The notes under the pieces were generated by a model, which did not search any database, was not told where the DNA came from, and was given only the letters and a program-made list of their open reading frames with translations. The translations under genes and the position numbers were made by a program. This document shows, in pieces, positions 2,104 through 54,235 of a stretch of 64,000 nt of DNA; the first letter of the stretch is position 1; each line of letters opens with the position of its first letter. The stretch lies in the IMG/VR virus record IMGVR_UViG_2799112923_000001; one strand, given 5' to 3'. Source of the stretch: a virus. Lineage: Duplodnaviria > Heunggongvirae > Uroviricota > Caudoviricetes.

Positions 2104-2939
2104 ATTAACTTCCCACTACAAGGACTAAAGGTTAATTCACCAAATTTTGGTTCACCATTTACAGAGTACATATCTACTCTAACAAATTTGAAATCCGAAG
2201 CCAATTTCTTAACGATTGGTTTCATTTTTTCTAATATATTTAGTTCACTTGGAATCAAATAGAAACGCATGGGTTTTACACCAATATATCCATCTGGTTC
2301 TTTCCCATTTTCGTCTGTGAAGGTCATAAACTCAGCTAAATTCTTTCCAAGTTTGCGTGAAGTTTGAACATATTTGATTTCACCATTCTCGCACCAAAAA
2401 CTCCAGTCTTTCAATACACCTATATTTGGTTGAACGATTACACCTTTGATAATTTTATCATATTGCCATTCCCAACCACTCATATAGGCATAGTTCAAGT
2501 TATACCATTCTTTTAGTTTACTCAAAAGATATTCAGGATTGTTTCCTGGTTTCTTTTCGTATTTGATATTCCAACCGGAACCGTGATTACACTTGAATAT
2601 GTAATTACCATCTGGTAAACTATCCAATTCGTGTCTGGTTAAATAGCATCTACTGTAATAAACTGGTGGAATGATAATGTCTTTCAAGCCGGCATCTTCC
2701 AACATATAATTCACAGTAATCTTGTCTGACCAAAGAGGTTTGCGTGGGTCAAGGTCATATAACTTACACCAGTTAATTCTATCCACGATGTTTTGTGGAT
2801 TATCCAAATTAACTGTGGGTAATTTTTCTTTAATCCATTCTATACCAAACTTGACTTTATCGTCAGCAAATCTACAGTTGTTGTATTCTGTATTATGTAA
2901 ACCTTGTAACCATTCTGCTTTGTATTCTTCTTCGGTCAT
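2085..2939 (-). CDS. TupA-like ATP-grasp amidoligase
   Basis: SDK..V, FKCNHGSGWN, WQY..I, FVRVDMY, FGELTFSPCSG. Confidence 0.8.
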   Translation of the reverse strand: MTEEEYKAEWLQGLHNTEYNNCRFADDKVKFGIEWIKEKLPTVNLDNPQNIVDRINWCKLYDLDPRKPLWSDKITVNYMLEDAGLKDIIIPPVYYSRCYLTRHELDSLPDGNYIFKCNHGSGWNIKYEKKPGNNPEYLLSKLKEWYNLNYAYMSGWEWQYDKIIKGVIVQPNIGVLKDWSFWCENGEIKYVQTSRKLGKNLAEFMTFTDENGKEPDGYIGVKPMRFYLIPSELNILEKMKPIVKKLASDFKFVRVDMYSVNGEPKFGELTFSPCSGKLIWKKLE

Positions 2940-3265
2940 ACGAAATCCTGTTTTATTGCTTCTAACATATTATCTTTCTTATATGTCTTATATAGTTCGT
3001 TTGGAATCGTTACATAAGTAATACCATCTTCCATCTTGATAAACTTAATATCTAACCATTTTCCAATTATTTTAAATCGATGTTTTTGTTCCGCATCCAT
3101 AAAAGCAGTAGAGAATGGAACATAATAATAGTTATCTTTAAATTCTACTACCCAATCACCACAAGAAATTGTTTCACAAATATATGGGATAAAACATTGG
3201 GCTTCTTTTATAACCAATCCATCACAATCTTTAAGTGGTTCAAGTATTTTATCTAAAATCTTCAT
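2936..3265 (-). CDS. Hypothetical protein, DF-tail family
   Basis: Ends ..LEAIKQDFV. Confidence 0.7.
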   Translation of the reverse strand: MKILDKILEPLKDCDGLVIKEAQCFIPYICETISCGDWVVEFKDNYYYVPFSTAFMDAEQKHRFKIIGKWLDIKFIKMEDGITYVTIPNELYKTYKKDNMLEAIKQDFV

Positions 3266-3554
3266 TGATACCTCTAATCTTTTCTTTAACTTTTCGTTCT
3301 TTTACAATCTTAATAAAATTAAGTAAACTTTGTTCCCAGGATTCTACTGATACTTTTGTGATAAATTCGTCCTGTGTTTTCCAATAATGACTATGAATGA
3401 ACTGACGAGTTTTCTTTAATTTAATTGAGCCATATCTATGCTTTCCATAGAAGAAATCAAATTCTCTCGCTTCTATAGGTGCATCATAAGTACCATTTTG
3501 AAATACATCATAATGTAATTCTTTTGCTTTGTCAGTTGCTTCTTTAATAGTCAT
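3249..3554 (-). CDS. Hypothetical protein, DF-tail family
   Basis: Ends ..IRGINEDFR. Confidence 0.7.
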   Translation of the reverse strand: MTIKEATDKAKELHYDVFQNGTYDAPIEAREFDFFYGKHRYGSIKLKKTRQFIHSHYWKTQDEFITKVSVESWEQSLLNFIKIVKERKVKEKIRGINEDFR

Positions 3555-3844
3555 TGAAAATCCTTTTGAATATCAGTAAGTATTTTGTTCATTTGTTGTT
3601 TCTTAATTTTGATTAACATTTCATTGATTAGTTTATTGTAAGTATATTCAGTGAAATTATTAGCCTGTGATTTAGATACCAAAATTTCATAAGATTTTAA
3701 ATCACTAGAACCCCACGATTCCATAATGTCAATACTATCGGCGTAATATCTAATCCTAAAGGTTAGTAATGGTGTATTGTAAGAAGTACAATTTTTAAAC
3801 GATTCAATATATCGTTTCATTTGTTCGTAAGATGCGATTGTCAT
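3551..3844 (-). CDS. Hypothetical protein, DF-tail family
   Basis: Ends ..LTDIQKDFQ; ATGA-coupled. Confidence 0.7.
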   Translation of the reverse strand: MTIASYEQMKRYIESFKNCTSYNTPLLTFRIRYYADSIDIMESWGSSDLKSYEILVSKSQANNFTEYTYNKLINEMLIKIKKQQMNKILTDIQKDFQ

Positions 3845-4227
3845 ACAAAATCTTCTTCAATCTTTTTAAGTTCTTCTTTATTTTCCAGTTCTTTATTTTT
3901 ACGATTATGTTCAGCTATGAATTTGTAAGTATCATTAAAGAATTTGTCTAATGAATCCATAGATAAGTTAATTTCGTCTTTTGTTGTAACTGCGGTACAT
4001 GGATTATAACATAAATAGTAACTTCTTTTATATTCTTTCCTTGAGCTGTATCTGTAATATGTGAACTGAATATACACATCTGACGAATACCACAAATCAA
4101 ATATCTTGTGGTTATCTTTTATGAACACCTGTAAATGTTTGCCTTCTTCATTGTAATCATAGAAAAACTCACAATGGGTGGAACAAAACTTCTTTACATG
4201 TTCTATAATTTCTTTAAATTTTTCCAT
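3841..4227 (-). CDS. Hypothetical protein, DF-tail family
   Basis: Likely start MEKFKE at 4227, just after a TATATT -10 box; ends ..LKKIEEDFV. Confidence 0.7.
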   Translation of the reverse strand: MEKFKEIIEHVKKFCSTHCEFFYDYNEEGKHLQVFIKDNHKIFDLWYSSDVYIQFTYYRYSSRKEYKRSYYLCYNPCTAVTTKDEINLSMDSLDKFFNDTYKFIAEHNRKNKELENKEELKKIEEDFV

Positions 4228-4296
4228 AATACCAATATAATAAAAACCCAGCATTTAACAATGCTAGGTTCTTAAAATAAGTTTCAAAAAGAACTG

Positions 4297-52723: not shown

Positions 52724-53260
52724 ATGAGAAACAAGAATACATTATTAGTTAATTTATATGCTGGTCCAGGTGCTGGTAAATCTACTGGTGCTGCTTACAT
52801 TTTTGCCAAACTAAAAATGGCAGGAATTGATTGTGAATATGTATCGGAATATGCCAAAGATAGAGTTTGGCAAGATGACCAATTCCCATTACAACACTGC
52901 CAATTATATGTTACAGGCAAACAATGTTTAAAGATTTATCGTTTGTTAGGAAAAGTTGATGTAATCGTCACCGATAGTCCAATAGCAGTTGGTGCGATGT
53001 ACACAACCGAGAAACCATATCAAGATGTTTGTTTGTATGAAGCAAAGAAGTATAAACCAACATTCAATATCTTTGTAAATCGTTTTAAGAAATACAACCC
53101 AAACGGCAGAAATCAAACTGAAGAAGAAGCCAAAGAAATTGATAAACGAATTAAAGATTTCTTGACAGAAAACGAAATCCCATTTACCGAAGCAAATGGG
53201 ACTGAAGAGGGTTATAACAAGATTGTGGAAGATATAATTGCTTACTTGAAATCTATGTAA
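52724..53260 (+). CDS. P-loop NTPase/kinase (NadR-type AAA_28-like)
   Basis: VNLYAGPGAGKST, VSEYAK, VTDSP, GRNQTEEEA. Confidence 0.75.
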   Translation: MRNKNTLLVNLYAGPGAGKSTGAAYIFAKLKMAGIDCEYVSEYAKDRVWQDDQFPLQHCQLYVTGKQCLKIYRLLGKVDVIVTDSPIAVGAMYTTEKPYQDVCLYEAKKYKPTFNIFVNRFKKYNPNGRNQTEEEAKEIDKRIKDFLTENEIPFTEANGTEEGYNKIVEDIIAYLKSM

Positions 53261-53793
53261 GTTTTTCCATTATCCAAAGACATTAGATATTTCTTTCTCG
53301 TTTTAGAAATAGCATCAATTATTCCTTGGTCTTGAAAGATTTTAGTCCAGTCATTACCTAAATGAATCCATTCCGCTTTTGTAGCAGGATTATATTCATA
53401 AATGATTTGACCGAAATCTACCAAGGAATTTTTGTTTAGTTCAATAATTTTCTTCGCAATTTCTTTATAACTTAAAGTACAGTTTGTAACATAAATATCG
53501 GCTGCTCCCAAGGTTGGTTTTCCTAATAATTGTAAACCGCAGAAATGATCTGATGTTTTACTAGGATTGTAACCTTTCTTTAACAATCTATCATAATCTG
53601 CTTGGGTACGAACACCACTAGAAATGCCGACACAAACATTCTTTTTTGGGTCTTTCTTGAACTGTTGTAGATAATCACGAACTTTCTGTAAATTATTTGC
53701 TAATAGTTGTAGTAAAGATTGTTGATAAGGTGTGATTGTTTCGTTTGTAAATTCGCTTAAACTAAAATTTTGGGTTAGTTTTACAACTGCCAT
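53242..53793 (-). CDS. Peptidase M15-family endolysin candidate
   Basis: LTQNFSLSEF, ISSGVR, S.TSDH, GAADI, Q.I.E, WIHL; late promoter TATAAATA on minus (53831-53838). Confidence 0.75.
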   Translation of the reverse strand: MAVVKLTQNFSLSEFTNETITPYQQSLLQLLANNLQKVRDYLQQFKKDPKKNVCVGISSGVRTQADYDRLLKKGYNPSKTSDHFCGLQLLGKPTLGAADIYVTNCTLSYKEIAKKIIELNKNSLVDFGQIIYEYNPATKAEWIHLGNDWTKIFQDQGIIDAISKTRKKYLMSLDNGKTYIDFK

Positions 53794-53805
53794 TTTTGCT
53801 ACCTC

Positions 53806-53838
53806 TTGACAAAATGTGTTTTAATTTCTATATTTATA
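53806..53838. promoter_or_regulatory. Overlapping divergent early (+) and late (-) promoters
   Basis: TTGACA-N17-TATATT on plus; TATAAATA on minus, overlapping the -10 box. Confidence 0.65.
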
Positions 53839-53854
53839 AAAAGCTGGAGATTTT

Positions 53855-54235
53855 ATGGATTACGATAAGATAAAAGAACTGTGTTTGAAATATGAGTATT
53901 TTGAATTTAGCCAAAATACATTTGGGTTTAGTATTCGTATTAAGCCCATTAGTCAAGTAATGGCTCAATTTCCAAAACAATACGCAGTTGAACTAATTGG
54001 AGAAAAGTGCGAGATTTACGAATTTACACAATTACAGAAATTCGCTTATGGTAGTTCAATAGATTATGTTATCACTTCTTTGTGTACACGAACCATAGAA
54101 ACTACTGATGTTAATGTGTGTATTATTTCAAAAATTTTGGAACATGTGAAACAACAGATTGAAAATCATTTAACCCAATATAAAAAATATCGTCAAGAAA
54201 TGTTGATGGAAAACGCAAACGAGGATTTTACATGA
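53855..54235 (+). CDS. Hypothetical protein, DF-tail family
   Basis: Ends ..MENANEDFT. Confidence 0.7.
   Translation: MDYDKIKELCLKYEYFEFSQNTFGFSIRIKPISQVMAQFPKQYAVELIGEKCEIYEFTQLQKFAYGSSIDYVITSLCTRTIETTDVNVCIISKILEHVKQQIENHLTQYKKYRQEMLMENANEDFT

Follow-up and report, generated by a model that had tools for sequence, protein, structure and literature searches.

The capsid-targeting sequence of bacteriophage T4 is a short peptide common to unrelated internal proteins, for which it serves as an address. The Dot/Icm effectors of Legionella make up large arsenals of unrelated, fast-evolving proteins whose 20-35-residue C-terminal signal is read by one receptor complex, and C-terminal tags for AAA+ proteases are well established (ssrA, MuA). 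Poxvirus ankyrin/PRANC (F-box-like) proteins and SspB, with its ClpX-binding tail, pair a variable part that binds targets with an unvarying C-terminal element through which a single degradation machine is recruited. The nearest phage precedent for the element described here is the sliding-clamp epitope of T4, which occupies the C-termini of gp43, gp33 and gp55 as well as a loop of T4 ligase (PMC2988020, PMC6212786); its motif, LDFLF, inserts three consecutive hydrophobic residues into a pocket of the clamp (PMC6212786). Here we analyze a stretch of 64,000 nucleotides (the window) from IMG/VR record IMGVR_UViG_2799112923_000001, an uncultured giant phage of the rumen with DNA of 31% G+C, in which about 29 small proteins had been predicted from the sequence to share a C-terminal helix ending in Asp-Phe (the DF tail). 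Comparison of its DNA and proteins with the cultured-phage collection gave no match to this phage. We find that the tail is a longer motif than was first noted, that it is under selection at the protein level and that a distant relative bears a parallel tag of different sequence.

In what follows, the Phe of Asp-Phe is residue 0 and the Asp is -1, with negative numbers running toward the N-terminus; genes are named by their lower coordinate, and window statistics refer to a 128-gene call in which 99 genes are non-DF. All 29 genes of the original prediction do encode proteins that end in [LIVAM]xx[LIVAM]xxDF plus 0 or 1 residue, and 27 of them match a strict regular expression for the tail. DF or DFx ends are found in 31 of the 128 genes, where 1.38 would be expected from the frequency of the DF dipeptide (binomial P=2e-32), and in 3 of 1107 non-gene, wrong-frame open reading frames (ORFs). 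A tail profile of 26 columns, scored on all 1235 six-frame ORFs of the window, gave 13.9-25.7 bits for the 29 members and 9.2 bits for the next-best ORF, and the matches of all 29 members stop 0-1 residue before the stop codon. In leave-one-out tests the scores dropped considerably, to a median of about 10 bits, although 27 of the 29 best matches were still C-terminal; the signal thus consists of a short motif together with an exact, fixed position. The terminal consensus stands as first described, but its extent had been drawn too short. Position -2 is K, E or Q, position -15 is Lys in 24 of the 29 tails and is followed by Lys or Glu at -14, and hydrophobic residues stand in register at -4, -7, -13, -16, -20, -23 and -27. 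The last 16 residues of the proteins (464 residues together) include no Pro and 3 Gly, and the residue after the Phe is polar or charged in 20 of 29 tails. The proteins themselves are 49 to 188 amino acids (aa) long, with a median of 114 aa.

Membership has soft edges. The tail of 19775 is marginal, its orthologues ending in EDF, ENF, EIF or DDF, while two genes with DF ends that appear chance-like in sequence, 42369 and 53242, were not accepted as members. Two array genes, 24305-24685 and 25911-26288 (both on the minus strand), have two residues beyond the DF (..EDFYE and ..YDFVG) and lack the rest of the helix motif; they may carry decayed or variant tags. Neither Pfam, searched with 19 DF proteins, nor PHROGs, searched with 10, gave a match above curated cut-offs; a weak PHROG match of unknown function falls on the head of 44266. 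A 32-column version of the tail profile had no match at E<=0.001 among 1.84 billion representative sequences, a null that is uninformative because true tails reach only about 25 bits. The comparisons drew on L005 (a 395-kb relative), L008, G001 (a complete relative, 415,750 bp), G002 and G003 (a 248-kb phage). None of G001, G002 and G003 gave a match to the tail profile, in agreement with a scan of protein ends in G001 and G003. Full-text literature searches returned no description of such a C-terminal tag on phage early proteins.

Twenty DF genes are coupled to the next gene via ATGA or TAATG, and nine have no stop/start junction. It had been noted that some tails, encoded as AAG GAT TT, double as the ribosome-binding site of the next gene, and this overlap is real but secondary. 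Codon -2 has a G at its third base in 18 of 20 coupled genes versus 0 of 9 uncoupled ones (Fisher p=5e-6), which creates GGAT 6-7 nucleotides upstream of the next ATG; the Asp codon is GAT in 27 of 29 tails versus 74% genome-wide; and the trailing codon in ATGA overlaps is always NNA. The trailing residue has no other role than providing the A of the ATG in the ATGA overlap. All of these features would be expected if the tail merely reflected, at the nucleotide level, the ribosome site and stop/start overlap of coupled translation, a proposal to which we give almost no credence, since Asp-Phe is retained in 9 of 9 genes that lack a junction and the accompanying G, since the conserved positions reach up to 27 codons upstream through many different codons, and since the pattern is not seen in the wrong-frame ORFs (3 of 1107). 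For example, 9 different codons are used at -4 and 13 at -7, where I, L, V, A or M is present in 29 of 29 and 27 of 29 tails, respectively. Coupling as the sole cause of the DF pattern is effectively refuted; with residue classes conserved to -27, conservation is not purely at the nucleotide level.

Comparisons among close relatives point in the same direction. Across the 36 members of the family that includes 27230, 27586 and 27948, the D and the F are invariant. In three near-identical IMG/VR strains, compared at three loci that are not independent, synonymous differences outnumber non-synonymous ones in the tails (30:23) but not in the heads (73:185; p=2e-4), and in one orthologue from such a strain the trailing residue is gone and the protein ends exactly in DF. 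Protein-level selection, which had been proposed from codon differences and from DF ends in front of terminators, is therefore upheld, with Asp-Phe and the hydrophobic positions kept across many codons and in uncoupled genes. The case shows a protein motif and a ribosome-binding site occupying identical codons.

Structure prediction gives a view of how the tail may be built. An AlphaFold2 (AF2) model of 27586, calculated from a 36-sequence alignment (predicted local distance difference test score, pLDDT, 88.5), consists of an alpha/beta head and a single 31-residue C-terminal helix (residues 90-120), with confidence dropping from >90 to 70 across the last ten residues. Foldseek found no match to this model in the PDB at E<=0.001. 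The fold has a middling likeness to YbjN/YjbR/type III chaperone-like sandwiches (VIA-align, Atlas; Z up to 6.3, template-modelling score about 0.5), which we treat as a lead only. In all members, hydrophobic residues recur with heptad-like spacing (4,3,4,3) from -27 to -13; a six-residue step from -13 to -7 interrupts this pattern, which is then taken up again at -7, -4 and 0. Taken together, the one model and the sequence pattern suggest that the proximal half of the helix packs on the protein's own head while the distal tip shows a different face.

Such spacing raises the possibility that the tails pair with one another as coiled coils, for instance antiparallel with Lys -15/-14 facing Asp -1, and so build homo- or hetero-oligomers or a large assembly of early proteins with no hub. 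The heptad-like spacing runs across four heptads, the 14-residue distance from the conserved Lys to the Asp is what an antiparallel pair would need, and mutual compatibility could conceivably explain strict conservation in many genes. Yet the distal part offers only three hydrophobic residues and a mean hydrophobicity of 0.11, the hydrophobic phase is broken between -13 and -7, and the proximal heptads appear, in the model, to be used within the monomer. We consider pairing rather unlikely. The low hydrophobicity bears also on a membrane-targeting amphipathic helix of the MinD/FtsA type, which would be marked by a high hydrophobic moment, net positive charge and a HeliQuest discriminant >0.68-1.34; the tail has a mean moment of 0.26, a mean net charge of +0.4 and a mean discriminant of 0.37, and this candidate was rejected.

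That the N-terminal parts are mostly unrelated, as originally claimed, is borne out as far as BLAST and profile-profile comparison reach. BLAST among the 29 DF proteins recovers just three small paralogue groups, and in hhalign comparisons of one family with another the alignment is confined to the last 39 columns or to 10 residues at the start of the helix, the profile-profile probability for the heads being 7% and 0.3%. Because the register of the helix is conserved over about 30 residues, the heads are possibly hyper-diverged paralogues, and the whole set could be a single family that descends from a small alpha/beta ancestor, with the C-terminal helix conserved for folding and no common partner. 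Similar sizes around the median, a register that persists to -27, an N-cap-like G-L-T-E motif recurring in three families, the existence of small paralogue groups and a proximal helix that is integral to the modelled sandwich would all fit. A structural helix, on the other hand, would not need an invariant terminal Asp-Phe in 29 or more members, and Asp -1 and Phe 0 sit at the low-confidence helix end, past the packed part; moreover, the lengths range widely, the heads yield nothing in profile-profile comparison, and the analogous set of a relative, described below, has a quite different, non-helical-looking tail. On balance we judge common descent of this kind improbable, although it deserves to be kept in mind.

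Two proteins bear the motif internally (Table 1), from which it follows that a free C-terminus is usual but not obligatory. The first, encoded by 28577-29221, is always 214 aa long and is 67-94% identical across 13 orthologues; it is much better conserved than its neighbours (79% identity in L005, 78% in L008) and may be a fused member or a partner-like protein. Its AF2 model (pLDDT 38) was unusable, and an Atlas feature search returned nothing usable for it and, for 26790, only phage clusters without names.

The arrays had been said to lie behind TATATT-type promoters. Exact TTGACA-N16-18-TATANT sequences in intergenic DNA, consensus promoters of the host type, do head them, at positions 29820, 25872, 48970 and 53806, and TATAAATA, a promoter of the T4 late type, is found upstream of genes without the tail. 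Early-type promoters at the arrays and TATAAATA at non-tail genes indicate that the DF carriers are probably early genes, judged solely from promoter type. Their heads turn over rapidly. RtcB is 98% identical between the window and L005, yet identity in the heads of the DF proteins spans 38-92% in that relative. The gene sets differ as well: the window has no homologue of three L005 DF genes and of one from L008, and L005 in turn lacks several window members, among them the 49-aa mini-gene 22584. One array slot, that of 27586, is filled in L005 by a protein with an unrelated head and the same tail. The heads thus behave like accessory genes under rapid change.

An early set with a fixed C-terminal element also fits a C-terminal degron or timer, through which a host or phage protease would remove early proteins at the late switch. 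Instead of a short non-polar end, however, the tail has a charged helix of 30 residues; it tolerates a polar trailing residue in most members, it exists in internal copies, and no protease was identified among the window proteins, so a degron seems to us quite unlikely. An ssrA-like degron, which is a short non-polar C-terminus with a free carboxylate, was rejected on these grounds, other kinds of degron being possible.

An invariant motif on dozens of dissimilar, fast-changing proteins, held at a fixed terminal position on what looks like a projecting helix tip, favours a docking or address role, and it is with middling confidence that we read the DF tail as a common handle for one partner. 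The tail would be a protein-level C-terminal module formed by a single helix of about 30 residues. Its proximal half (-27, -23, -20, -16, -13, heptad-like) would pack on the variable head of the same protein, the hydrophobic face would shift past the conserved Lys-Lys at -15/-14, and the last 8-10 residues ([LI]-x-x-[IL]-x-x-D-F) would project as a free amphipathic tip in all members. We propose that the Leu/Ile/Phe stripe of this tip enters a groove of the single partner, that Asp -1 and Lys -15 make the specificity contacts, and that dozens of early proteins with differing, fast-evolving heads are in this manner brought to one machine or place. In coupled genes the ribosome-binding site of the next gene overlies codons -2 and -1.

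Several points weigh against a docking handle. No partner of the tail was found, and dozens of proteins at one site would need a partner that is abundant or catalytic. There is a single confident structure, so that both the free tip and the different folds of the heads rest on one model plus sequence patterns, and the register of some 30 residues could reflect common descent of one hyper-diverged family. The motif is internal in two proteins, so that a free C-terminus is not strictly needed. In distant orthologues, the last 16 residues are no better conserved than the heads (77% versus 73%), and motif positions are only modestly better conserved than other tail positions (85% versus 73%, p=0.047). 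About a quarter of the genes in the window bear the one tag, and if this tag serves for docking or as an address, one pull-down using a peptide of 10-30 residues would reveal the central machine of a large and otherwise unreadable set of orphan early proteins.

A second tag is present in G001 (IMGVR_UViG_3300028832_000001), a complete IMG/VR genome with terminal repeats that was reached through RtcB. This phage has 23 of the 99 non-DF genes of the window, with core genes 46-57% identical; by comparison, RtcB itself (window 21190-22380, minus strand; L005, 8509-9699; G001, 290184-291404) is 81% identical between the two and is unusually constrained or recently exchanged. None of the 29 window DF proteins has a homologue in G001, which has no DF-helix tails. 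Instead, 15 of its proteins, 108-157 aa long, end in EVEFMDI. Their genes span 338.8-400.9 kb (loci L036-L040), 13 being clustered at 380-401 kb and two lying at 339 and 352 kb. The terminal word FMD occurs 15 times in G001 against 0.27 expected. The same terminal-word analysis of G003 gave no enriched C-terminal word, and G003 serves as a negative control for the method. No Pfam family was found in the ten EVEFMDI proteins tested, and 2 of 105 pairs of heads are related by BLAST. The codons for Val, Asp, Ile and the stop vary synonymously, and Phe is TTC in 13 of 15; the resulting coding sequence, GAATTCATGGA, may be under an additional constraint at the nucleotide level. Like the DF set, the EVEFMDI set comprises small proteins with an invariant C-terminal tail and heads that are mostly unrelated by BLAST, clustered in one region with host-type promoters. 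Its tail, in contrast, is wholly different in sequence, a strand-like segment with an acidic/hydrophobic end.

Based on these two tags we propose, tentatively and as something possible rather than probable, that giant phages of this group run host takeover via lineage-specific C-terminal address tags (the DF helix, EVEFMDI) that route rapidly exchanged early effectors to one receptor, be it an adaptor-dependent protease, a compartment or a scaffold. If so, new effectors would become functional just by gaining the tag, the arrangement would match, in phages, what effector secretion signals or viral F-box adaptors do elsewhere, and the tag would help to assign phage 'dark matter' to functional classes. 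That a distant relative has an unrelated second tag suggests an organising principle of general reach and not a one-phage curiosity, and the two tag types provide a natural comparison for the receptor, in which one would look for proteins that differ with tag type.

The sliding clamp, one of the hubs named in the original prediction, is disfavoured by these data. The phage resembles T4 both in recombination genes (SbcC/gp46-like, SbcD/gp47-like and UvsY, all in the window) and in TATAAATA promoters, and the T4 epitope is itself a short acidic/hydrophobic C-terminal Asp-Phe segment that is interchangeable and can be helical (PMC2988020, PMC6212786), so small proteins might use such a tail to ride on the clamp or compete for it. 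The DF tail lacks the run of three consecutive hydrophobic residues of T4 and has only a single Phe, after which comes the stop or a polar residue; the residue before its Asp is polar as well, and no replication enzyme in the window bears it. Furthermore, the family B DNA polymerase of G001 (15216-18443, minus strand; L020) ends in SALDEFFY, close to the clamp-binding end of T4 gp43, and this end, by its sequence the probable clamp epitope of the phage group, is unlike both the DF tail and EVEFMDI. With no three consecutive hydrophobics and with this polymerase end unlike the tag, we do not class the DF tail as a clamp epitope and think that origin very unlikely. The G001 polymerase as a query retrieved only close relatives and no polymerase of the DF clade. 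The window contains no clamp gene, the genes for gp43, gp33 and gp55 of its phage lie outside it, and G001 gave no match to the clamp family PF09116.

Three further candidates were rejected: a T4 prohead-protease site, as Leu-x-Glu is present at -7..-5 in only 7 of 29 tails; mimicry of the SSB tip, as a trailing residue is tolerated; and nascent-peptide arrest at the stop codon, as the register to the stop varies by one residue.

Table 1. Positions in the window of the DF-tail genes, of two proteins with internal copies of the motif and of the early-type promoters.
Feature	Coordinates	Strand	Remarks
DF-tail gene	2936..3265	-	109 aa, ends DF+V
DF-tail gene	3249..3554	-	101 aa, ends DF+R
DF-tail gene	3551..3844	-	97 aa; L005 orthologue 65% identical
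DF-tail gene	3841..4254	-	137 aa
DF-tail gene with in-frame CGGA as one Gly	8024..8480	-	152 aa, between SbcC (gp46-like) and SbcD (gp47-like)
DF-tail gene	10747..11061	-	104 aa, DF-stop, uncoupled; top profile score
DF-tail gene	11099..11413	-	104 aa, DF-stop, uncoupled
DF-tail gene	18816..19343	-	175 aa; followed by hairpin terminator-like sequence
DF-tail gene	19340..19666	-	108 aa
Marginal member	19775..20323	-	182 aa, acidic tail ending EEDF
DF-tail mini-gene	22584..22733	-	49 aa, barely more than the tail helix; missing from L005
DF-tail gene	22730..23188	-	152 aa
DF-tail gene	23789..24133	-	114 aa; Asp codon GAC
DF-tail gene	24867..25433	-	188 aa; versus L008, head 38% identical, 15/16 last residues of tail identical
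DF-tail gene	26503..26790	-	95 aa
DF-tail gene	26790..27230	-	146 aa; distant paralogue of 44266
DF-tail gene, trio family	27230..27589	-	119 aa
DF-tail gene, trio family	27586..27951	-	121 aa; AF2-modelled; array slot with different head in L005
DF-tail gene, trio family	27948..28298	-	116 aa
DF-tail gene	29218..29517	-	99 aa
DF-tail gene	44266..44688	+	140 aa, TCC GAC TTT stop, then terminator-like hairpin; uncoupled
DF-tail gene	50252..50593	+	113 aa; opens seven-gene array
DF-tail gene	50590..50904	+	104 aa; paralogue of 50901
DF-tail gene	50901..51218	+	105 aa
DF-tail gene	51215..51526	+	103 aa
DF-tail gene	51513..51914	+	133 aa; synonymous Phe codon difference in near-identical strains
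DF-tail gene	51915..52310	+	131 aa; trailing residue lost in strains, end exactly DF
DF-tail gene	52307..52678	+	123 aa, uncoupled
DF-tail gene	53855..54235	+	126 aa, directly 3' of consensus early-type promoter
Protein with internal tail-like helix	28577..29221	-	214 aa, inside the array; helix at residues 113-137, Glu-Phe for Asp-Phe, then 77 residues
Protein with internal distal motif	4297..4815	-	172 aa; motif at residues 113-120
TTGACA-N17-TATATT-type promoter	29792..29820	-	heads 29758..25911 array
TTGACA-N17-TATATT-type promoter	25844..25872	-	heads 25801..19775 operon
TTGACA-N17-TATATT-type promoter	48970..48998	+	heads 49022..52678, including seven-gene array
TTGACA-N17-TATATT-type promoter	53806..53834	+	upstream of 53855

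The gene at 8024 had been correctly credited with a DF tail but was incomplete as first drawn, its 56-codon ORF being the 3' part of a gene running from 8480 to 8024 that stays open only when an in-frame CGGA counts as a single Gly; its product has no family match. The gene of G001 between SbcC and SbcD is not homologous to it and has no tag. TGTAAA-N6-TTTACA-like palindromes adjoin several promoters in divergent intergenic regions of the window (30505-30540, 45280-45400 and 48900-49020), and may be operators of an early-gene regulator. Besides the recombination proteins and RtcB, the window encodes a UvsW-like helicase and glycosyltransferases. Its sugar-modification genes are duplicated (1237-2939, 4820-5713 and 30538-31359), with two TupA-like ATP-grasp paralogues (44% identity) and two family-2 glycosyltransferase paralogues (35% identity). 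Finally, otherwise unrelated proteins encoded at 13227, 13589, 14693, 14991, 36825, 37473 and 44722 have their first 20-50 residues in common (for example, 13227 with 14991; 13589 with 44722; 14693 with 36825 and 37473), and TATAAATA promoters lie upstream of at least 36825 and 37473. These N-terminal segments look like a leader family on late proteins, distinct from the C-terminal tag.

Set beside the systems outlined at the start, the DF tail resembles effector secretion signals and viral adaptor families in concept only, and any link of the tail to a protease would be hypothetical. The PRANC proteins and SspB exemplify the adaptor model that the original prediction envisaged, but PRANC is a folded domain of known homology and the SspB tail a short extended peptide on one protein. 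With respect to Dot/Icm, no secretion apparatus is evident here, and the DF signal is a defined helix in which certain residues are invariant, as opposed to a loose bias in composition. The capsid-targeting sequence of T4 differs in being N-terminal, in belonging to late proteins and in being cleaved by the prohead protease, and leaders of that N-terminal kind seem to exist in the window phage too, as a set of their own on its late genes. The likeness to the T4 clamp epitope is closer: both are Asp-Phe segments, usually at the extreme C-terminus, on otherwise unrelated proteins of one phage, and the T4 epitope docks its carriers on one hub, with segments that can be exchanged and can bind as a helix. 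In T4, however, the motif sits on a flexible, non-conserved linker, whereas the DF tail is a single Phe ending a conserved, K/E-rich helix of 30 residues; and while the carriers in T4 are enzymes of replication and transcription, those of the DF tail are 29 or more small proteins, probably early, of no known family.

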